Shown one piece after another: positions 2,676 through 60,171 of a stretch of DNA of 64,000 nucleotides. Origin of the DNA: Pseudomonadales bacterium (lineage in GTDB: Bacteria; Pseudomonadota; Gammaproteobacteria; Pseudomonadales; UBA7239); NCBI GenBank assembly GCA_028280345.1, contig JANQLY010000023.1, positions 196,201 through 260,200 on the forward strand, given 5' to 3'. Numbering within the stretch: the first letter of the stretch is position 1; the number at the start of each line of letters is the position of its first letter. The notes under the pieces are model-generated. The model made no database searches. It saw nothing but the letters and a program-made list of their open reading frames with translations, and was not told where the DNA came from. The position numbers and the translations under genes are program-made.

Positions 2676-2974
2676 GACTGACTCACTGGCAATTGATCAT
2701 GGTATTTTATAACAAAACCTCACCATAAGGCTTCATAATGAAAGCTTGATCTCACACCACTTGACCACGGATATGAAAAAGAAAACGGCAATATGCACTG
2801 GTTGCGCAGGCATGACTTTATTAATAGACATGACCGATATTGATAGCCTTGAGCGAAACAAGGAATATAACCACTATCAATTTATAAGCAGTCCTGAGCA
2901 GCAATACCTCCCACGCTCGCTGCAATAATTGTTTACTGCTAGAATCCTGTTAACCGGTTTGAGCGATATCTGAT

Positions 2975-4432
2975 ATGAAAGCTATTTTCCCATGCTTGCT
3001 ACTAACATTCTTTTTGTGCAGTTGCAGCGGCATTCCTGTCGAGGATCGAGACGCCGTGCGCGAGAAAATCAATCAGGATGCAGCACTGGCACTTAAAGAA
3101 CTGCTTGATACCCAGCCCCTTGTACAGGAAAACCTCGACAAATCTATCGGTTATTTCGTCGGTGAAATCTCTTCCGTTCAAGCCGCAATTATTGGTGGCG
3201 GCACCGGCATTGGGGTGCTGCATGATACAGAAAAACAAACACGCACTTATGTCAACGCCGACCGCTTCGACCTCGGACCGGGACTTTCTGCTACTGTTAA
3301 TACCGTCGTGATTCTTTTTTACGACCGCGAAGCCATGGAAGAGTTTGGCAAAGGTAAAACCTACACAGGCATAGCAGCGGCATCTTCTGCCGGCACTAGC
3401 GGAGGCTCAGCCGTTTCCATGATCGGCCACAAGGCAGATACCTATTATCTTTCACAAAGTGGCGTTGCCGTTACAGCCACTGCCCGGCTCGTCACCACAT
3501 CGGTCAATACCGATCTGACAGACGTAGGCCTGTCAGAAATCAGTATTCCCGCCACACGCAGTGCCTCCACAACCGGTGAACAAGGCGATGATGCACCACG
3601 ACAATGGAATCGCGCACTGCCCTTTCTCGCCCAGGAAGTGATCGACCGCGGTTATGATCTGCCACTTCCCTATGGCCTAAGCCTCATCTATAGCAAGGTA
3701 GATCAGGAGCAATATATTACCGATCTGAATGTCGGCATTAACGGCCGTCCGATAGAGCCTTTTGAGTTTGTCACGTTTGATGAAGCCTACTCCAAAAGTG
3801 ACAGCGTACAACTCAAGTTTGACGCCTGGTTATTTCCGTTTATGAATATCTTTGGCATGTTTGGCAAAGTTGAAGGTGAAGCACCACTGGAAATATCACT
3901 TGACGGCAATGGCATGCTCGACCATCTCGGTCGGGACTGCACAAAACCCGGTCCGAAACCGCTATGCAATCTGCTACAGGATAAAACATTCAATTTACCA
4001 ACCATTACGCCGGATTTCTCCGGTGAAACTTACGGTGTCGGTACAATACTTGCTGCCGGATGGGATGACTGGTTTGTTACATTACCATTAACCCTTACCT
4101 ATGCGGATATGGAAGGCAAATACACTGAGGGAATCTCAACAACAGTGACTCCTCGTGTCGGCCACCTGTTCTCACTCGATAATGCAGGTAACCTTGCACT
4201 CTATGCTGGCGGTAATTATCTAAAAACCGAACTGGATATCGAAGGTGTCGCACAAGATCCAATGGGCCTGTTTACGTTTGAATACACCGTTGAACAGAGT
4301 AATTCTGATCGCTGGAATGCACTGGTCGGCGGTAATTGGAATATTGACAAACGCTGGTCCGTACAGGCGGAATATAATGGCTTTATTGGCTCACGCGATG
4401 CGTTTATCGCTTCATTAAATTTTCGTTACTAA
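2975..4432 (+). CDS. lipoprotein with SYLF (Ysc84/DUF500) lipid-binding domain
   Basis: 485-aa ORF. Signal peptide with lipobox (LCSCSG). SYLF-like segment GYFVGEISSVQAAIIGGGTGIGVL...YYLSQSGVAV. Confidence 0.55.
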   Translation: MKAIFPCLLLTFFLCSCSGIPVEDRDAVREKINQDAALALKELLDTQPLVQENLDKSIGYFVGEISSVQAAIIGGGTGIGVLHDTEKQTRTYVNADRFDLGPGLSATVNTVVILFYDREAMEEFGKGKTYTGIAAASSAGTSGGSAVSMIGHKADTYYLSQSGVAVTATARLVTTSVNTDLTDVGLSEISIPATRSASTTGEQGDDAPRQWNRALPFLAQEVIDRGYDLPLPYGLSLIYSKVDQEQYITDLNVGINGRPIEPFEFVTFDEAYSKSDSVQLKFDAWLFPFMNIFGMFGKVEGEAPLEISLDGNGMLDHLGRDCTKPGPKPLCNLLQDKTFNLPTITPDFSGETYGVGTILAAGWDDWFVTLPLTLTYADMEGKYTEGISTTVTPRVGHLFSLDNAGNLALYAGGNYLKTELDIEGVAQDPMGLFTFEYTVEQSNSDRWNALVGGNWNIDKRWSVQAEYNGFIGSRDAFIASLNFRY

Positions 4433-52292: not shown

Positions 52293-52613
52293 TTAACCCG
52301 CTTTATCAGCCTTGCTGCCACCCAGACAATCCGGGCTATCAGGCGCGCCCTGCTTCTCCTGCCATTCATCTTGCGTATAGGTATGCAAAGCCAGTGCGTG
52401 GATTTTGCCCATCGAGTCACCAAGCGCGGCATAAACCAGCTGATGCTGCTGCACTGGGCGCTTGCCCGCAAACTGATCTGACACAATGACCGCTTTAAAA
52501 TGCGACTCGGAACCCTCCGGCACCGAGTGCATATAACTCTCATTCACCAGCTCAAGATGAGCCGGACTCAACCCATCGACAATTTTCTGTTTAAGCTCAT
52601 TCTGGATAACCAC
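52293..52613 (-). CDS. BolA/IbaG-family protein
   Basis: 106-aa BolA-like protein (HF...GxSxHF style motif SESHFKAVIVS). Confidence 0.65.
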   Translation of the reverse strand: MVIQNELKQKIVDGLSPAHLELVNESYMHSVPEGSESHFKAVIVSDQFAGKRPVQQHQLVYAALGDSMGKIHALALHTYTQDEWQEKQGAPDSPDCLGGSKADKAG

Positions 52614-52805
52614 AATCTATCCTCACAGACAATCATGAATAAAGAGACACTATTCTACGCTGCCCGGCGTGCCAGCCAAACCCCGAATTAAATGGCCAAA
52701 TCCGGTAAAATCCCATTGACTGAAACCGCTGTGCCCCCTATAGTACGCCACCTTCAACTTCAGCTCTGATTTGGCTCGGATACGAGAAAAATCAATAGCT
52801 TACAT

Positions 52806-53013
52806 GCGCTGGTAGCTTTAGTGCTATCTGACACGAAGTGCCTGCAAGCACTTATACTCTGGAGTACAGTTGGATAGAGCCTCTCGCCTAAAAGTAGAAG
52901 GGCTACGAACCAGAGGGGTGAGCAGAGCGAAGTTGGCAAAGCATCGCTTTGCGCGATGCGAACGACGGAAATCTGTGATTTCCGGCCGGGCCGCGGGGTG
53001 TAACCCCCGACCC
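52806..53013 (+). pseudogene. degenerate, insertion-riddled tRNA-Arg-like copy
   Basis: Begins with the exact 5' 12 nt of the downstream tRNA (gcgctggtagct). Later carries cagttggatagag and ggctacgaaccagagg blocks, interrupted by unrelated inserts. Confidence 0.3.
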
Positions 53014-53037
53014 ATACAAAATCTTGAAAGAATTGAT

Positions 53038-53114
53038 GCGCTGGTAGCTCAGTTGGATAGAGTATCTGGCTACGAACCAGAGGGTCGGGGGTTCGAATCC
53101 TCCCCAGCGCGCCA
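53038..53114 (+). tRNA. tRNA-Arg (anticodon ACG)
   Basis: Cloverleaf: acceptor GCGCTGG/CCAGCGC; D-loop AGTTGGATA; anticodon loop CTACGAA; T-loop GGTTCGAATCC; encoded CCA. Confidence 0.85.
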
Positions 53115-53116
53115 TC

Positions 53117-53155
53117 CAATAAAAAAGCACCCCCTGTGGGTGCTTTTTTATTGGA
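53117..53155. terminator. palindromic bidirectional terminator after the tRNA
   Basis: ccaataaaaaagcaccc cctgt gggtgcttttttattgg. Confidence 0.6.
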
Positions 53156-53470
53156 TGTTGGGTTGGTGCTGATTGGAGGCAAATCCCCCGGTTCGACAAA
53201 TTTGCAGGAGCAAATTTGGGCGTCAGCTTTGCTGACGGGTCGAAGACCCGAGGGGCATGGATGCCCCGAGTCAATCCTCCCCCTTTCCAGCACAATTAAA
53301 CTATCCCCCCTGTGGGTGCTTTTTTATTGGATGTTGGGTTGGTGTTGATTGGAGGCAATGCCCCCGGGTTCGACTAATTGCGTCAGCAATTTGGACGTCG
53401 CAACGCCGACGCCCCGAAGGGGTGAAAAAACGCCTTAGCGTTTTTGAATCCATCCTCCCCAGCTTAGCCC
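53129..53470 (+). repeat. two tandem ~170-bp units, each with the terminator fragment plus a degenerate tRNA T-arm/3' end
   Basis: The block cctgtgggtgcttttttattggatgttgggttggtg(c/t)tgattggaggcaa is duplicated at ~53131 and ~53306. Each unit ends with gaatcc..cctcccc, like the tRNA-Arg 3' end. Confidence 0.5.
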
Positions 53471-53480
53471 CCTAAACCAC

Positions 53481-54320
53481 TCACAAACCAGAAACAACCT
53501 CAACAAGCTCCAACTCGTAAACCAGAGTTGCTGTTGCGGGTATCTCCCCACCTGTAATACCCGGCAAACCATAAGCCATATTTGCAGGTACAAATAGTTG
53601 CCAGTGAGATCCCTCGCTCATCATCGGTAGCACTTCTTGCCAACCGGGAATCACTTCTTCCATTGCAAAGGTCGATGGAGCTCCTCTTTTATACGAACTA
53701 TCAAATTCCTGAAGTTGATTTTTATCATCAACAAAACTAACGGCATAATGTACACGAATCTTGCTATCAGCATTCGGCTTATTGCCACTCCCCTGCTGCA
53801 CAATCCTGTATTGCACACCACTCGAGATTTGCTGAATACCATCTTTCTCTTTGTTTACCTGTAAAAGCTTTTCGCCAGCTTCCTCGATAGCAGAGTTTTT
53901 AATATTGTGCTTTTCTTGTAGATCGCGTTGCTGTTTCTCATTGTATTCTTGTATGGACAACTTGAGCTGATGCATGGTTCTCTGCAGCTCCATTTCGCTC
54001 ATGCGAAAGACTTTTTTATTTTGTACGTCTTCAATACCCAACAACACAAAATCTTTATCCAGCTGCAAAACTTCTACAGGAACCCCGTTTGCCAAATTAA
54101 TGCCCAATATATAAGAAATCTTCTCTTCCTCTGTCATAGGCGCTCTGTTTATTGCCGCACGAGTTATATCTGTTGATGCGTCTAATGCACCCGCACTCTG
54201 CACTTCAGGCCCTGCACGAGGCACACCTTCTGCCTCCTCTTTACCGCAAGCTGCTGCAAGGAAACATAAGACCAATAGAATGGTGTAACGAATCGCAGAA
54301 CCCAAACACAGTATTTTCAT
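53481..54320 (-). CDS. fkpA: FKBP-type peptidyl-prolyl cis-trans isomerase lipoprotein (FkpA/Mip-like)
   Basis: Lipobox LAAAC. N-terminal dimerisation helix. C-terminal FKBP domain (...GGEIPATATLVYELELVEV). 279 aa. Confidence 0.75.
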   Translation of the reverse strand: MKILCLGSAIRYTILLVLCFLAAACGKEEAEGVPRAGPEVQSAGALDASTDITRAAINRAPMTEEEKISYILGINLANGVPVEVLQLDKDFVLLGIEDVQNKKVFRMSEMELQRTMHQLKLSIQEYNEKQQRDLQEKHNIKNSAIEEAGEKLLQVNKEKDGIQQISSGVQYRIVQQGSGNKPNADSKIRVHYAVSFVDDKNQLQEFDSSYKRGAPSTFAMEEVIPGWQEVLPMMSEGSHWQLFVPANMAYGLPGITGGEIPATATLVYELELVEVVSGL

Positions 54321-54323
54321 CGA

Positions 54324-55136
54324 TTAGCTCCCTATATCAGCCTTAAACTGGCCACCTTTATAATCTCCATCCAGCGGCAGTGGTTCGGCTGGTGGCACGT
54401 AGGGAGGCTCTTCACCCTCTGCTTCATGGATAACAGCGACTGCATCCAGATCAAGACCCGCACTACCTACTGTTGGGTAAGGGTCATAAATAATATGGGG
54501 GCCACCAACAACAGCCGGATAGTCATCATAGGCAGAGCCATCACCGACTATATCGATAAGCTTCACATGTGTAATCGCACTAATATCCAGCCCAGGTGTT
54601 CCTGTCAGGACATTCAGATCAAAGGGCGTTCCCTCCCCTCCTTTATATTTACTTGCATAGCCCGTAATGTTGGTTGGATCAACAACCCCAAAACCGCCGA
54701 CCGGGCTGGCAGTAAAAGAAATATTCGGATAGCGTGTAAAATTGACACCATCGGAAGAAACCTCGACCCATGCAATCTCTAAAAAAGTATCACTGAACGA
54801 GTTCTCAAAAATCAGAAAGTCAGCACCGGGGCCATCTGTAATAGGCTTATTAAATGTCAAAGTAATTTGCCCGCCTCTACCAAGTGAAACAATATCGTAA
54901 GTAAAACCCTGGTTATTACCATCCGAGTTACCTGCCAGCCCCAATGCTTTTTGCGGTGTCTGCCAGGTAGCGTCTACATTAGTTCCCATATTGTAGTTTT
55001 CATAACCCGTTGCCCAAGCAACAATACTGCTATCATTCCAGGCCACAGCCGTCGAACCGGGCTGCCCCGCAGCTGGCGCATAGGGGCCCGCATAAAGTGA
55101 CTGAACGAAGACGCCCGAAAGCATACCAATCAGCAT
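54324..55136 (-). CDS. secreted hypothetical protein (beta-rich, Gly/Asp-rich)
   Basis: Start set at [16 protein letters not shown] (signal peptide). Sits downstream of the TonB-dependent receptor. No recognised family. The tracked ORF extends to 55319. Confidence 0.45.
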
Positions 55137-55218
55137 GACACCCCAGCGCTTGCTTTTAATCCGGTTTTGCACTGTTTTCTGATAGTTCACAAAAGCCTCC
55201 TCATCGTTATAAGCAGGG

Positions 55219-57282
55219 TTAGTAATAAGAATATTTAATCCCTGCCATAAAGTTTCTTTCTGGCATCGGGTAAAACGTTCCACTGTAGCCTGAAGTTGAA
55301 TAAACCTCATCAAAAACATTCAGGACAGAGAGGAAGATTTCTACTTCATTTTCCTGCCATGACAGTTTTATATCTGTGACTCTATAGGCATCCAGTTTTG
55401 GATAAGTGCTGTTGTTAAAATCATTACCATCAAAACGCTCATCTGTATAACTGGTTGAAATAGCCCCATAAAAAGATGCCGTGGGCTGCCATTCAAGGCC
55501 TATGGTTGCATTAACCCGTGGCACCAGGGGAATAAAGGTTCCACTTTCGATAAAGGCAGCATTTATATATCCTGCTTTCACATAAGCGGATAGTGAATCC
55601 TCTAAAAAACCGTATTGAATATCCAGTTCAACACCATCGCGACGTGTTACCTGATCAGCATTTCGATTAACAGCCAGCCTTGTTACCGGGTCAATCCCGT
55701 AAAGAATTTCATCTTCAATTTTTATAGTAAAAAGCGTCACACTACCATCAAGGTCTCCATGCTCAAATCGCACACCTATATCCCAGTGCTTGCCGGTTTG
55801 CGGCGCGAGGTCTTCATCAGACAACACCAACTCATCAACATTTGGGTTTCGGAAACTTGTGGCGTATCCAACAAAGCCATCTATATTTTCACTAATTTGA
55901 TAAACAGCCCCAACTTCAAATGCCGTGTTATTCCAGGTTTCATCTCGGTGAGCAGTATTGAGCCACTCACTTCTACAATTAGTTTCCACCGGGATCGGGA
56001 ACAGAAAAGGCGGGATGATCATATCAACATAATCACATACCCTCGTCAGATTCTCTTCGTCCTGCTCCAACTCGGATTTATCAAAACGCCCCCCTGTACT
56101 AATACGCCAACCTTCACCGTTGAGCGCCCAATCTGCGAAAAATGCCTGATTGGATAAATCACCTTTTTTTTCCTGGCTTTGATCCAGAACATTCCGACCA
56201 TTACGATATTGCTGGTAGTCTGTGATAAATGCTTCAAATCCATAGCTGAACTCACTCTCAAACTCACCTAGCGAGTCATAACGACTGAGAATCAAATCAC
56301 CGCCGTAACGTCGGTCTTCAATCGATAGAATCTGATCCTCTACAGGAGCTGTTGGCGTATACTGAAGCAATGTGTCACTAAAGCGTTCCCGATAATACAA
56401 ATGACTATCAACAAGCCAGCCAGATGGCGAGGTGTAATCTGAGTGCCATTGAATTAAACGCTCCTTGCTTTCACCACCGTCTTGCGGTGCAGTCGTCGAT
56501 TTTCGTTGAGCACCGGAACCTTCGTAATTCTCACGACTGACTGGACCGGGCAAGCCAAATTCATCACGGTGATTTTTAAACATCAGTCCATGTTCAAACT
56601 GATCATTGATTTGATGCTTTATACTAAACAGAACGTCCTGTTTGGATAGATATCCATTATCTCTGTAACCATCGGTGTCATAGTCAGCAAGATTGACTTT
56701 GAAAGTCAGATTATCATTATCTGTATTGACGTAATTAAAACGCAGATCATGGGTATCGAATGATCCCGCCGCCGCATAAACATCCAATGCCGCCTGATTG
56801 CTTTTGGTAATAATATTGACCACGCCACCCACAGCACCATTACCATAGCGCACTGTTCCTCCACTACGAACCACTTCAATACGCTCTATTTGAGAGATTG
56901 AAATAGTCGATAGATCAGGACCGGACAGGTCGTCGTTATTCAAACGTACGCCATCAACGAGCACAAGCACATTACTACTACTGGTATCACCCATACCACG
57001 AATGTCGATGCTGCTATATTTATCATTTCCTGTAAACGAGCGCAGATTGATATTAGCTTCCTGAGATAGCAGCTCTGACAACTGGGTAGCCGTTGAGCGC
57101 GCAATATCATCCGAGTCGATAACTGTAACATTTTTTGGGATCTGGCTTTCCGGGGTCTGACGCACACCAGTGACAACAATCGTATCCAACTCAGTCACTT
57201 CATTTTCAGCGAAACTGTTTGTGCTTGTCAGTAGCATTGCCATCATTCCACCAAAAATTAATTTACAGCTATAAATTTGCAC
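55219..57282 (-). CDS. TonB-dependent outer-membrane receptor
   Basis: Signal peptide. TonB-box-like DTIVVTG. Plug plus 22-strand barrel. C-terminal aromatic residue. 687 aa. Confidence 0.8.
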
Positions 57283-57429: not shown

Positions 57430-59604
57430 TTACTGATTACTCAGGATCAGTTGACCAGTGTTAATCCCTAACCATTTCGCGCCACCAACTTTAGAGCCAT
57501 TCTGCAGCTCAATCAGCGCCACGTTACCAGAACCGTCCTGCAAAGCGATATCCACATCACCATCGGCATCCGCATCAAGTACATTTTTCACATCGTAGGC
57601 AATGGTAGTGAGCCAGCGAGCGGTGACCTTGATTCCGTTCTCGATTTCAACCACCTGCACAGAACCGGTACCACTGTTTTGTTGGATCAGATCGGCATCA
57701 CCGTCGTTATCAATATCACCGACGGCCAGTACCGCAGTACCCGCCCAGGCACCGAGCCAACGACCCGTGACTTTAACACCGTTCTCAAGCTCAACCACCA
57801 TTACATCACTACCGCTGGCGCCAGCCATGAAGATGTCGTCATCACCGTCGGCATCCGCATCACCGGCTCCGACTACAGTACGGCCACTCCAGACACCGAG
57901 CCAACGGGCAGCGACTTTAGCGCCATTTTCCATTTCAATGACATTGACATTGCCGGAGGCATCCTGGGTCACGATATCGTCATCACCGTCACGGTCGATA
58001 TCCGCTGTCGCAGCTACTGTGTGACCGGCCCATTGTCCAAGCCAGGCGGCAGACTGCTTCGCACCGCTTTCCATAATCCAGACAATAACATTGCCCGAAC
58101 CATCACCGAATACCAGGTCGGCATCACCGTCACCATCAAGGTCACCAGTAAAGCTCAACGTGTAACCACTTTGAGCACCGAGAGAAACTACCGACTCCCG
58201 TGCACCGTATTGCATTACCCAGAGGATAACCTCACCAGTACCGGCATTCTGGAACAGCAGATCTGAGTCGCCGTCATTGTCTACATCCGCATTGCCGAGC
58301 AGACTCGCAGTGCTGTTGGTACCGAGCCATACCGCGCTATCTTTATTCGCATCCTGCATGGTCCACAGCACAACGGAGCCAGAGCCATCCTGGAACAGCA
58401 TATCGCCATCGCCATCCGCATCAACGTCATTGGGCACATCCAGGTCACTGACCGTCGGATCTGTACCAAGAACGTATTCCTCGAGGTTGGTGACACCGTC
58501 ACCATCCTGGTCATCCCCGCTATCGTCAACCAACGGATTAAGGCCATAGTTGTTCTCCCAGCTATCGGGCATACCGTCGTTATCATCGTCGGTATCTACT
58601 GTGTCAGGGTAACGATCCCCATCAGTATTCACACCCGGAATAACTTGATAAATACCATCCTGGTCAGAAAAATAGGTTTGCCCTTGATATAAGCGTACCG
58701 ATGTCATGCGATTAGAGGATTGCGCGGTAATTTCAGCCGTACCCAGATAATCGCCGCTATCATCCATATAAAAAGTCACCAGGTCCGAAGGCGCACCAAA
58801 AGAAGTCAGAGTCACCACCAGGTGGCCATTACTATCAAACTCCATGCCGGTAGCACCCGCGTGACCAAAGCTATTGAAATCAATAATCTCATGACCTGCC
58901 GGGTCTGTCAGCGGCGTACCCGCAATGGCCAATGCGACTTCAGCAGCAGAGTATTTGTGAATTTTTCCAGCACTGTAACCGGAGGCATAATACAGATTAC
59001 CTGCTGCATCAAAAGCAATAGGGCCGGAAGGACTGCCCATAAAGCCCAGGTCAACTAAAGGCCCGGTTAAATCACCATTACCATCCAATGCAGAGTAATA
59101 CAATTTGGCATCCCAATTAACATCTGCTCCGGCAATAAACAAACCATTATTATGAATCGTATATCCCCAGGCATTACTTTGCTGAAACACCTGTGTAGCC
59201 GCACCACCCCCAATGGAGTCATATTTAAACAAGGCGGTGAGACTACCATCGTCAAAATAAATGTTATCCCCATCACTCAAAACCCATGTACCCGAGTAGG
59301 AAGCTGCCGTATAGATAGCACTGAGCGTATTACCATCAAACTTATGGACTTTTAAATCCTGGGCAAAATTGTTATCCCCTTCCATCCAATATAAGTCACC
59401 GCCACTACTCCAGTTAAAACTGGCAACGTTTTTACCAACAAAAGGGTTTTGGTAATAGGTTAATACATTACCGCTCGTGATAGCGGCCAGTGAATTACTA
59501 GCCATCAGAGAAAGAAACAAAAAGCAGAATATTTTGTTTGACCAAAATTGCTTGAGTGAAGTTTGCTTACTATCGTTTGTAGATAGAAAAATCATTGAAG
59601 CCAT
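57430..59604 (-). CDS. secreted protein with N-terminal beta-rich domain, TSP3-like Ca-binding repeat and 8 FG-GAP repeats (beta-propeller)
   Basis: Signal peptide (KIFCFLFLSLMASNSLAA). DTDDDNDGMPDSWE...DQDGDGVTN TSP3-like motifs. Eight DxDxDGDxD + VLW/VIW FG-GAP units. Start set at ATG 59604; the tracked ORF starts at TTG 59652. Confidence 0.6.
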   Translation of the reverse strand: MASMIFLSTNDSKQTSLKQFWSNKIFCFLFLSLMASNSLAAITSGNVLTYYQNPFVGKNVASFNWSSGGDLYWMEGDNNFAQDLKVHKFDGNTLSAIYTAASYSGTWVLSDGDNIYFDDGSLTALFKYDSIGGGAATQVFQQSNAWGYTIHNNGLFIAGADVNWDAKLYYSALDGNGDLTGPLVDLGFMGSPSGPIAFDAAGNLYYASGYSAGKIHKYSAAEVALAIAGTPLTDPAGHEIIDFNSFGHAGATGMEFDSNGHLVVTLTSFGAPSDLVTFYMDDSGDYLGTAEITAQSSNRMTSVRLYQGQTYFSDQDGIYQVIPGVNTDGDRYPDTVDTDDDNDGMPDSWENNYGLNPLVDDSGDDQDGDGVTNLEEYVLGTDPTVSDLDVPNDVDADGDGDMLFQDGSGSVVLWTMQDANKDSAVWLGTNSTASLLGNADVDNDGDSDLLFQNAGTGEVILWVMQYGARESVVSLGAQSGYTLSFTGDLDGDGDADLVFGDGSGNVIVWIMESGAKQSAAWLGQWAGHTVAATADIDRDGDDDIVTQDASGNVNVIEMENGAKVAARWLGVWSGRTVVGAGDADADGDDDIFMAGASGSDVMVVELENGVKVTGRWLGAWAGTAVLAVGDIDNDGDADLIQQNSGTGSVQVVEIENGIKVTARWLTTIAYDVKNVLDADADGDVDIALQDGSGNVALIELQNGSKVGGAKWLGINTGQLILSNQ

Positions 59605-59734
59605 GATATCCCCTTGCGCCCACCGCGCTGTGTTTAACTCAGGCAGGAGCAAAGAAATAGGGCTTCAGGAAAAGCGGTAAAAAAACCACCGAAGACCTGC
59701 ACTTTGCGTTACCCACCGTAACTCGTTGCATATG

Positions 59735-59870
59735 TCATTAAAGGCCGGTCTCCGGACTTATGAGCTGCAAAAACTCGCAGGTTTCTCACTTACCGTTGCG
59801 GGGGCAGTGCTGGATTCTCACCAGCTTCCCGTTTCACTGGATAACTCCAGCACCTTTAAGGCGCGCAAAG
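59735..59870 (-). promoter_or_regulatory. cobalamin (B12) riboswitch
   Basis: Minus-strand RNA reads ...CUUAAAGGUGCUGG...GGGAAGCUGGUGAGAAUCCAGCACUGCCCCCGCAACGGUAAGUG...AAGUCCGGAGACCGGCC(UUUAA). This matches the conserved GGGAA/GGUG/AAUCC/CCCGC core and the B12 box, with P1 closure. It lies ~85 nt upstream of the beta-propeller gene. Confidence 0.7.
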
Positions 59871-60171
59871 ATACCACACTTCCATACAAATTCGCCAGGT
59901 AGATACCGTGAAGTTGGCCCGGATTACTAGAAAAGAGAATTTCTTTTTTAATATCAATAGCTTAAGGAGGTGTTTTTTTAAGCTCCCGCCACCATTGCTG
60001 CCAGCACAGGGGTCTCCATCTACTCTCAAATCAGATTTTTTTGCAGTAAACGGCACTTATCACATCCCGCCGCCACCCTGAAAACGGGTATTTCCAACAG
60101 GACACAGGGTTAAGGCTCGGCTCGTTATACCCAAAATAATCCCTGTCACAAACCTAAATACGCAAAATATT

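Follow-up and report, generated by a model that had tools for sequence, protein, structure and literature searches.

Layout of the tRNA-Arg(ACG) region

In the 64,000-nt window of Pseudomonadales contig JANQLY010000023.1 analysed here (the whole stretch, to which all window positions refer), bolA (52293-52613, minus strand) and a gene for an FKBP-type isomerase (53481-54320, minus strand) are separated by an 867-bp gap that holds a tRNA-Arg(ACG) region. The tRNA operon is read on the plus strand, so that bolA is divergent from it and the FKBP gene convergent to it. Besides one intact tRNA gene, the gap contains an interrupted copy of that tRNA on the promoter side and, behind the terminator, two tandem units rich in hairpins, each with a short copy of the tRNA near its 3' end. 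The region is probably a single-gene tRNA-Arg(ACG) operon with two diverged tRNA-linked repeats (TLRs, of the RtT type) and a decayed promoter-proximal duplicate of the tRNA.

A sigma-70-type promoter for the operon lies at 52716-52744 on the plus strand (TTGACT, a spacer of 17 nt, and TATAGT, then a GC-rich discriminator ACGCC), with 10 of 12 consensus positions matched in a consensus scan. The intact tRNA-Arg(ACG), with CCA encoded, occupies 53038-53114 on the same strand and was found by ARAGORN and by the Rfam tRNA model (RF00005, 65.4 bits); neither detected another tRNA in the 64-kb window, in agreement with the first-pass annotation of this DNA, which had listed one intact gene. It is followed by a strong bidirectional intrinsic terminator (53115-53155) made up of a perfect 18-bp hairpin, an A-run and a U-run, which the terminator scan missed and which was confirmed instead by folding (-27.2 kcal/mol, z=-8.4 relative to shuffles). 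The terminator is the centre of a longer imperfect palindrome at 53093-53177 (inverted repeat I2, 40 nt at 80%), and folding of the entire region is far stronger than that of shuffled sequence (z=-8.2), largely through the terminator and the hairpins.

Hairpin units downstream of the terminator

PMC8144298 describes TLRs (Egan & Landy 1978; Rudd 1999) as repeating, in their last 18-19 nt, the 3' terminus of the tRNA or rRNA that precedes them, CCA included. E. coli has 22 copies at 10 loci, of which the 19 in tRNA operons are without known function although the class dates from 1978, and the three in rrn operons, which bind Hfq and CsrA, owe their expression to read-through of a terminator (PMC8144298). 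In E. coli K-12, units of 134-178 nt were located after tyrT, tyrV, argV, argZ and argQ, each ending in the last 18-19 nt of the tRNA. They run ACGTTGC-loop-GCAACG, CCC-GAA-GGG, CGA, a third hairpin, GAGT and AATCC, to which the tyr-type units add GGTTCGAC and an extra first hairpin.

The window units share this order of parts. Unit 1 (53156-53292, plus strand), supported by a covariance model described below, by folding and by alignment with the E. coli tyrT TLRs, contains GGAGG at 53175-53179, GGTTCGAC at 53190-53197 and four hairpins, all present in its fold: hp0 at 53197-53218, hp1 at 53221-53237 (CGTCAGC-TTT-GCTGACG), hp2 at 53238-53248 (GGTC-GAA-GACC) with CGA after it (53249-53251), and hp3 at 53252-53267 (GGGGCAT-GG-ATGCCCC). 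GAGTC (53268-53272) then leads into AATCCTCCCC (53273-53282), a 10-nt copy of tRNA positions 53096-53105. Unit 2 (53293-53470, plus strand), supported by the same model, a sub-threshold Rfam match and folding, opens with a dead terminator copy (53293-53331) and continues with GGTTCGAC at 53367-53374, hp0 at 53376-53391, hp1 at 53396-53411 (CGTCGC-AAC-GCCGACG), hp2 at 53412-53422 (CCCC-GAA-GGGG), TGA at 53423-53425, hp3 at 53426-53445 (AAAAACGC-CTTA-GCGTTTTT), GAATCC at 53446-53451 and ATCCTCCCCAGC at 53452-53463, a 12-nt copy of tRNA positions 53097-53108 (repeat D10, 12/12). The centroid fold of unit 2 shows a closing stem, GGAGG/CCUCC, together with hp0, hp2 and hp3. In both units the cluster of three to four hairpins falls within a T-loop, bounded precisely by GGTTCGA and AATCC.

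Two tandem units of ~170 bp had been noticed downstream in the first-pass annotation, and they are recovered as ~177-bp units by a direct repeat (D1, ~100 nt, 79% identity, spacing 176) and by a period of 177-178 in the occurrences of AATCCTCCCC (53096, 53273 and, in the form ATCCTCCCCAGC, 53452). The 3' halves of the units, at only 45-55% identity, are too diverged for Tandem Repeats Finder, which reported nothing. The palindromic terminator that was said to be repeated with each unit is functional in form at its first occurrence, and at the second (53291-53336) the 5' arm has been lost and the remaining fold is weak (-5.5 kcal/mol, z=+0.5). A terminator copy accompanies each unit, and the duplication unit is therefore taken to comprise the tRNA 3' end, the terminator and the TLR.

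The relationship to the E. coli repeats was assessed with a covariance model (R1) built from four E. coli K-12 TLR cores only, with which the whole window was searched with filters off. R1 matched unit 1 at 53219-53283 (32.9 bits, E=2.9e-8) and unit 2 at 53394-53461 (22.2 bits, E=6.9e-5), and found nothing significant elsewhere in the window, where the next match had E=1.8 and the best background score was 8.2 bits. In 1.1 Mb of unrelated gammaproteobacterial loci, which came from a scan of GTDB genomes with the topoisomerase III that neighbours the locus in the window, the best score was 16.5 bits. When the E. coli and window cores were aligned jointly (six distinct rows), 94.7% of cells paired and 7 of 15 pairs changed on both sides, values reached by none of 500 shuffles, and slid controls paired in only 35-64%; the joint alignment was fitted to the model, which favours structure. 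Alignment by MAFFT, made independently of the model, also placed units 1 and 2 collinear with the E. coli tyr TLRs, and folds of the single sequences recovered the hairpins.

By this homology of the core and covariation of the stems, and by their position in a tRNA operon, on the plus strand directly behind tRNA-Arg and its terminator, the downstream units are classed as diverged members of the TLR family. The E. coli TLRs (RtT/rttR, RF00391) likewise follow a tRNA directly and share its strand, tRNA-Arg(ACG) is among the tRNAs that carry them, those of tyrT are tandem with a period of 178 nt, and their units also end in a copy of the 3' half of the T-loop and the 3' strand of the T-stem. The core common to both consists of (in the tyr-type units, GGTTCGAC and hp0), hp1, hp2 with a GAA loop, C/UGA, hp3, GAG/AU and AAUCC. 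Since substitutions affect both sides of the stems and spare the linkers (GGTTCGAC, CGA, GAGU, AAUCC), the core would be either structurally constrained or regenerated by a specific mechanism, rather than local junk. The first-pass annotation had allowed that the fragments might prove to be a conserved structured element and not tRNA debris, and for the downstream units this is what the TLR model and the covarying hairpins indicate.

In a permissive scan with Rfam models, the best non-tRNA match on unit 2 was RF02902 (53368-53456, 25.2 bits, E=0.022), which is below the family threshold of 39.8. The RF02902 consensus (Aggregatibacter sRNA 22, AaHKsRNA22) resembles the units in having hp0, GA, ACGUUGGC-UUU-GCCAACG, CCCC-AAA-GGGG, CGA, hp3 and GAGU, and differs in being defined as an expressed small RNA in a Pasteurellaceae species. 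RF02902 and RF00391 were also seen to share hairpin order and linkers (ACGUUG.., CCC-RAA-GGG, CGA, hairpin, GAGU), and in Rfam they are unrelated and belong to no clan; the likeness suggests that the two families describe one wider class. A similar arrangement is found in RrA, RrB and RrF of E. coli (rrnA, rrnB and rrnD, between T1 and T2), where a stable-RNA gene, a terminator, a TLR and a second terminator-like hairpin follow one another as in the window. Those repeats differ in copying the 3' end of 5S rRNA and in carrying GGA motifs that bind CsrA, and the window units, as far as compared, are not similar to them in sequence.

An unlikely account would treat the whole region as a decayed multi-copy tRNA-Arg array, as was first suggested for this DNA, with the downstream units being former complete tRNAs of which only the T-arm and 3' ends can still be recognised. 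A gene and its spacer could give a period of 177-178 nt, and tRNA-Arg(ACG), commonly a tandem multi-copy gene in Gammaproteobacteria, stands in tandem in E. coli (four copies), in Aeromonas caviae (five) and in Photobacterium; the upstream pseudo-tRNA, moreover, is plainly a dead copy. When tRNA positions 1-59 are locally aligned with either unit, however, only GGTTCGA or GGGTTCGA is recovered, at scores within the range of shuffles (equalled by 1135/2000 and 365/2000 of them). The units are matched by a model of TLR cores from E. coli, themselves not copies of tRNAs, and their stems are perfect and covary, unlike the 5' part of the pseudo-tRNA, which has no more structure than shuffled sequence (z=+0.6). 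Descent of the downstream units from whole tRNAs was rejected on these shuffle tests, the similarity being confined to GGTTCGA and the 3' strand. The array account thus stands for the upstream copy, given its position, its counterpart in a relative (L090) and the multi-copy precedent, and fails for the units.

An interrupted tRNA copy and the locus in relatives

The upstream element, a pseudo-tRNA-Arg of ~208 bp (52806-53013, plus strand), consists of three exact blocks collinear with the real gene. Block 1, ATGCGCTGGTAGCT, is identical at 52804-52817 and 53036-53049 (14/14) and takes in 12 nt of the tRNA and 2 nt of its leader, block 2, CAGTTGGATAGAG, is identical at 52867-52879 and 53050-53062 (13/13), and block 3, GGCTACGAACCAGAGGG, at 52901-52917 and 53068-53084 (17/17). 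They correspond in turn to the 5' acceptor strand and D-stem (52806-52817), the D-loop (52867-52879), and the anticodon loop, its 3' stem and the variable region (52901-52917). Between them lie unrelated inserts of 49 nt and 21 nt; a further insert of ~70 nt follows, and a long hairpin (52988-53013) comes at the end. A pseudo-copy of ~200 bp with the same start, with D-arm and anticodon-arm blocks and with unrelated inserts had been described before, and the exact repeats bear this out. The element is passed over by ARAGORN and, at E<=10, by the Rfam tRNA model; no 3' acceptor strand (CCAGCGC) occurs upstream of 53038, and there is neither a detectable cloverleaf nor a pair of acceptor strands.

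Within the pseudo-tRNA, AACCCCCGACCC (53002-53013, plus strand) is the perfect reverse complement (12/12, inverted repeat I4) of the variable loop and T-stem 5' strand of the real tRNA (53082-53093) and lies 25 nt upstream of that gene. It forms the 3' arm of a pseudo-T-arm hairpin, and the minimum-energy fold of the full region pairs a long perfect stem there. The ~70-nt insert in the variable loop also holds a pair of hairpins (52941-52984, plus strand: GCATCGC-TTTGC-GCGATGC, GAA, CGA, CGGAAATC-TGT-GATTTCCG), in a segment (52915-53037) that folds at z=-2.45. Its layout resembles that of the TLR core (hp1, GAA, CGA, hp3). A third TLR core is not claimed, as a combined model (R2) gave this pair only 9.2 bits (E=1.6).

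Related loci were reached through BolA, and five usable contigs, with BolA 71-76% identical to the window protein, could be compared (L086, L089, L090, L171 and L174). In all five the promoter TTGACT-17-TATAGTACGCC stands upstream of tRNA-Arg(ACG) beside bolA. L089, L090 and L171 all end inside a tRNA, L089 and L171 within the D-arm, which makes these two uninformative. Comparison across relatives had been proposed as a check on the first interpretation, and the arrangement does vary. In L086 and L174 the tRNA follows directly behind the promoter (49 nt and 12 nt after the -10 element) with no pseudo-copy; in L090 a pseudo-tRNA comes first and the real tRNA after it. In the L090 pseudo-tRNA the 5' acceptor and D-arm are intact, 17 nt are inserted at position 26, the anticodon loop is mutated and the T-arm is scrambled; L090 also has GGATTCGAACC, an 11-nt complement to the T-loop region, 20 nt before the real tRNA. 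The window pseudo-tRNA begins 61 nt after the -10 element and the real tRNA of relatives 12-50 nt after it, so that the dead copy occupies the ancestral tRNA position, where relatives have their only tRNA. From its exact blocks, this position and its recurrence in L090, the upstream element is read as a dead copy of the tRNA. Each pseudo-copy matches the tRNA of its own lineage (GCGCTGG in the window, GCGCCCG in L090), and therefore either duplication recurred or the copies evolve in concert.

Tandem arrays of tRNA-Arg(ACG), as in E. coli serV-argVYZQ and in Aeromonas caviae (csrA-serV-5x argV), involve the same duplication-prone tRNA species, and such duplication explains the origin of the upstream dead copy. 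The window differs in that only one copy is kept and the dead one is a mosaic. In the Aeromonas array the spacers are 25-94 nt, and the TLR core is absent from the Aeromonas and Photobacterium tRNA-Arg arrays. As for the TLR in the relatives, L086 has a reduced remnant after its terminator (GGTTCGAC, GA, CCGCCAT-GG-ATGGCGG, GAGT), which makes it probable that the common ancestor of the bolA-tRNA-Arg clade already had a TLR and that the repeat turns over rapidly. Among 80 metagenome contigs with more distant BolA loci (<=71% identity), none has a tRNA within 2.5 kb, which confines the bolA-tRNA-Arg linkage to a narrow clade. The GTDB scan with topoisomerase III gave relatives all at <=54% identity, mostly Vibrionaceae, with no shared locus. 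The best named BolA relatives of the host lineage are Pseudomonadales-type bacteria, Halopseudomonas and Aestuariicella among them.

The presence of perfect complements to the real tRNA in both leaders invites the view that leader and trailer are functional RNAs. The pseudo-tRNA, as an anti-T-arm leader, could modulate tRNA folding or processing or act as a decoy for tRNA-binding enzymes, and the TLR units could be processed as read-through small RNAs by analogy with RrA, RrB and RrF. The 12/12 complement 25 nt before the tRNA, the 11-nt complement that L090 has 20 nt before its own tRNA, the covariation of stems between E. coli and the window lineage, the expression and the Hfq and CsrA binding of E. 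coli rrn TLRs (PMC8144298), and the folding of the region would all be consistent with it. L086 and L174, however, do entirely without the leader, the leaders of the window and L090 differ in sequence and in the target of their complements, and GGATTCGAACC is close to a palindrome and could be just the remains of a T-arm. The units, for their part, have neither the acceptor 3' strand nor the CCA that tRNA-like 3' processing requires, stand behind a -27 kcal/mol terminator, and have their counterparts in the 19 E. coli tRNA-operon TLRs without known function (PMC8144298). A functional role for either part is unlikely. Were the units to yield processed TLR RNAs, discrete stable RNAs would be expected from 53156-53470, with 3' ends directly after AAUCCUCCCC.

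Repeated integration and imprecise loss of islands or phages at the T-loop, which would leave the tRNA fragments as attL/attR scars, was the other origin first proposed for the region. Tyrosine integrases that target the T-loop use identity blocks of the kind seen in the repeated segment, which runs from the T-loop 3' half to the tRNA 3' end. Gene order does break at the tRNA, the BolA-TopB side being conserved in L086 and the other side different. The ORFs flanking the locus, however, include none evidently of integrase size, as had been noted at the outset, and the neighbours with domain calls (BolA, topoisomerase, LysR regulator, FKBP, TonB receptor) are of housekeeping type; no integrase or mobile DNA was found adjacent to or between the repeats. 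Among 50,697 phage and 72,556 plasmid records searched by BLAST with 52750-53480, matches were confined to the intact tRNA. In an attR, GGTTCGAATCC would be uninterrupted, in place of GGTTCGA, ~75 nt and AATCC, and the same hairpin core, matched by the TLR model, is found in island-free E. coli tRNA operons between functional tRNA genes. Integration scars are highly improbable as the source of these repeats.

The break in gene order was also recorded as an observation on the setting of the locus. It falls exactly at the tRNA/TLR region, with the bolA-topB side conserved in L086 and the far side consisting of an FKBP and TonB-receptor cluster in the window (53481-57282) versus a 4HBT thioesterase in L086, where the segment compared is 2744-3220. 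In a relative of the FKBP side (L083, 1-891 and 6001-7135), the FKBP cluster is beside crcB, a tmRNA gene next to an integrase lies ~5 kb away, and no tRNA adjoins the FKBP gene. Further along the window a cobalamin riboswitch (RF00174, 89.7 bits, 59726-59872, minus strand) is directly upstream of an ORF for a repeat-rich, secreted-looking protein of 740 aa (57430-59652, minus strand), after which come, all on the minus strand, a TonB-dependent receptor (55219-57282), a 331-aa ORF and the FKBP gene. The 740-aa repeat-rich protein is an unusual first gene for a B12-controlled operon.

Probable turnover of the units and a possible wider repeat class

The favoured reading of the locus, diverged TLR units with a dead tRNA duplicate, would be accounted for if the tRNA 3' end, present as short direct repeats, promotes slippage or unequal exchange. 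Such exchange would multiply and shrink units and would give both the 177-178-bp period and the pattern of birth and death among relatives. The same process may duplicate or delete ~177-bp units as well as whole tRNA copies (compare the 178-bp repeats of E. coli tyrT), with redundant copies then decaying. The upstream 208-bp element would be the leftover of a tandem tRNA duplication, now a leader to be removed when the real tRNA is processed. The hairpin stems could be kept by selection on RNA structure or by palindrome-templated repair. By the E. coli precedent of rrnB T1-TLR-T2, the units would be transcribed only by read-through of the terminator at 53115-53155, and they would at most probably act as a buffer of hairpins and terminator between the tRNA and the convergent FKBP gene.

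Several observations weigh against this reading of the units and the leader. With RF00391, the Rfam RtT model on which E. coli RtT copies score 133-138 bits, the permissive scan gave only 16.5 bits (E=2.9, 53322-53465; threshold 45) over unit 2 and no match on unit 1. Identity to the tRNA 3' end is 10 and 12 nt rather than the 18-19 nt including CCA of E. coli TLRs, and the acceptor 3' strand and CCA are missing from both units. Units 1 and 2 are 95-100% identical over 53135-53175 and only 45-55% in the hairpin region, an unevenness that simple neutral decay after one duplication fails to explain. The pseudo-tRNA blocks are 100% identical while the inserts are unrelated, which is odd for gradual decay, and this mosaic hints at conversion, insertion events or some constraint. 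Both pseudo-tRNA leaders, moreover, carry 11-12-nt perfect complements to the T-arm region of the real tRNA that could have a function. Lastly, only two relatives are informative on each side of the tRNA.

The high-identity segment 53135-53175 could be a recent conversion tract or could reflect constraint on the segment. A C/A-rich stretch on the minus strand (53125-53196, with a copy at ~53301-53372) was observed to run into the bidirectional terminator on that strand, and to give a sub-threshold match to Rfam asX2 (29.6 bits, E=0.0015). It coincides with the segment that is ~97% identical between units (53133-53177 vs 53309-53353), the rest being 45-70% identical. The stretch could encode an antisense small RNA, and so be a candidate source of constraint, or could be a recent conversion tract.

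Copy number at the locus was also considered in the short-read (Logan) contigs of the source sample, for which an exact-protein look-up gave two, L001 and L082. The first stops inside the real tRNA (window 53073) and the second inside the conserved part of unit 2 (near 53315), breaks of the sort expected at repeats. The locus is not resolved in the short-read assembly, and the copy number given by that assembly is therefore not to be trusted.

The TLR model aligns its first hairpin (CGUUGC..GCAACG) weakly with tRNA-Arg(ACG) segments in L090 (4-69, minus strand) and in L177 (459-525); the segments are mutually complementary within the tRNA (CGUAGC at positions 6-11 and GCUACG at 31-36), and the scores of 9.4-9.5 bits are not significant. 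This alignment may be due to chance, or the core may derive from an internally deleted tRNA-Arg. L177 is a 1000-bp circular 'plasmid' of Photobacterium toruni (NZ_CP101699.1) made up almost wholly of a tRNA-Met gene and five tRNA-Arg-like repeats, several of them with aberrant anticodon loops, and is probably an assembly artefact of a tRNA array and not a plasmid.

The placement of the hairpins within tRNA loops suggests a further possibility, namely that the four-hairpin module of 70-80 nt (hp0, hp1, hp2, CGA, hp3, GAGU) forms a discrete cassette, inserted into tRNA genes at their loops. In the E. coli tyr TLRs and in both window units the module lies between GGTTCGA and AATCC of the T-loop, and the similar-looking hairpin pair in the variable loop of the pseudo-tRNA has GGG on each side. 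This is quite improbable; if true, a small insertion element that targets tRNA loops, or an RNA-templated insertion, would persist in TLRs as relics or as live copies, and the module would be common to several gammaproteobacterial orders (Enterobacterales, Pasteurellales and the window lineage) and not a by-product of local duplication.

In summary, the comparison with E. coli places the window units among the TLRs. Unlike the E. coli units, they share only the short 3' identity with the tRNA given above, each includes a copy of an intrinsic terminator (one alive, one dead), the host belongs to a distant, marine-type gammaproteobacterial lineage, and an upstream pseudo-tRNA is present, of a kind not seen in the tyrT-tyrV and serV-argVYZQ regions. 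With 3' identity down to 10-12 nt, no CCA and a dead second terminator, the units are eroding, and the locus is best filed as a diverged, eroding TLR variant in a new lineage, with nothing new in kind. The tRNA-Arg/TLR locus itself appears eroded and unlikely to be important to the cell. A TLR hairpin core beside tRNA-Arg(ACG) in this lineage nevertheless extends the repeat class beyond the enterobacteria, with covariation, and the suggested link between RF00391 and RF02902 is a starting point from which to build a broader TLR model and to survey the class phylogenetically. For annotation, "tRNA debris" found downstream of tRNAs would be better labelled as TLR-type repeats than taken as evidence of lost islands.

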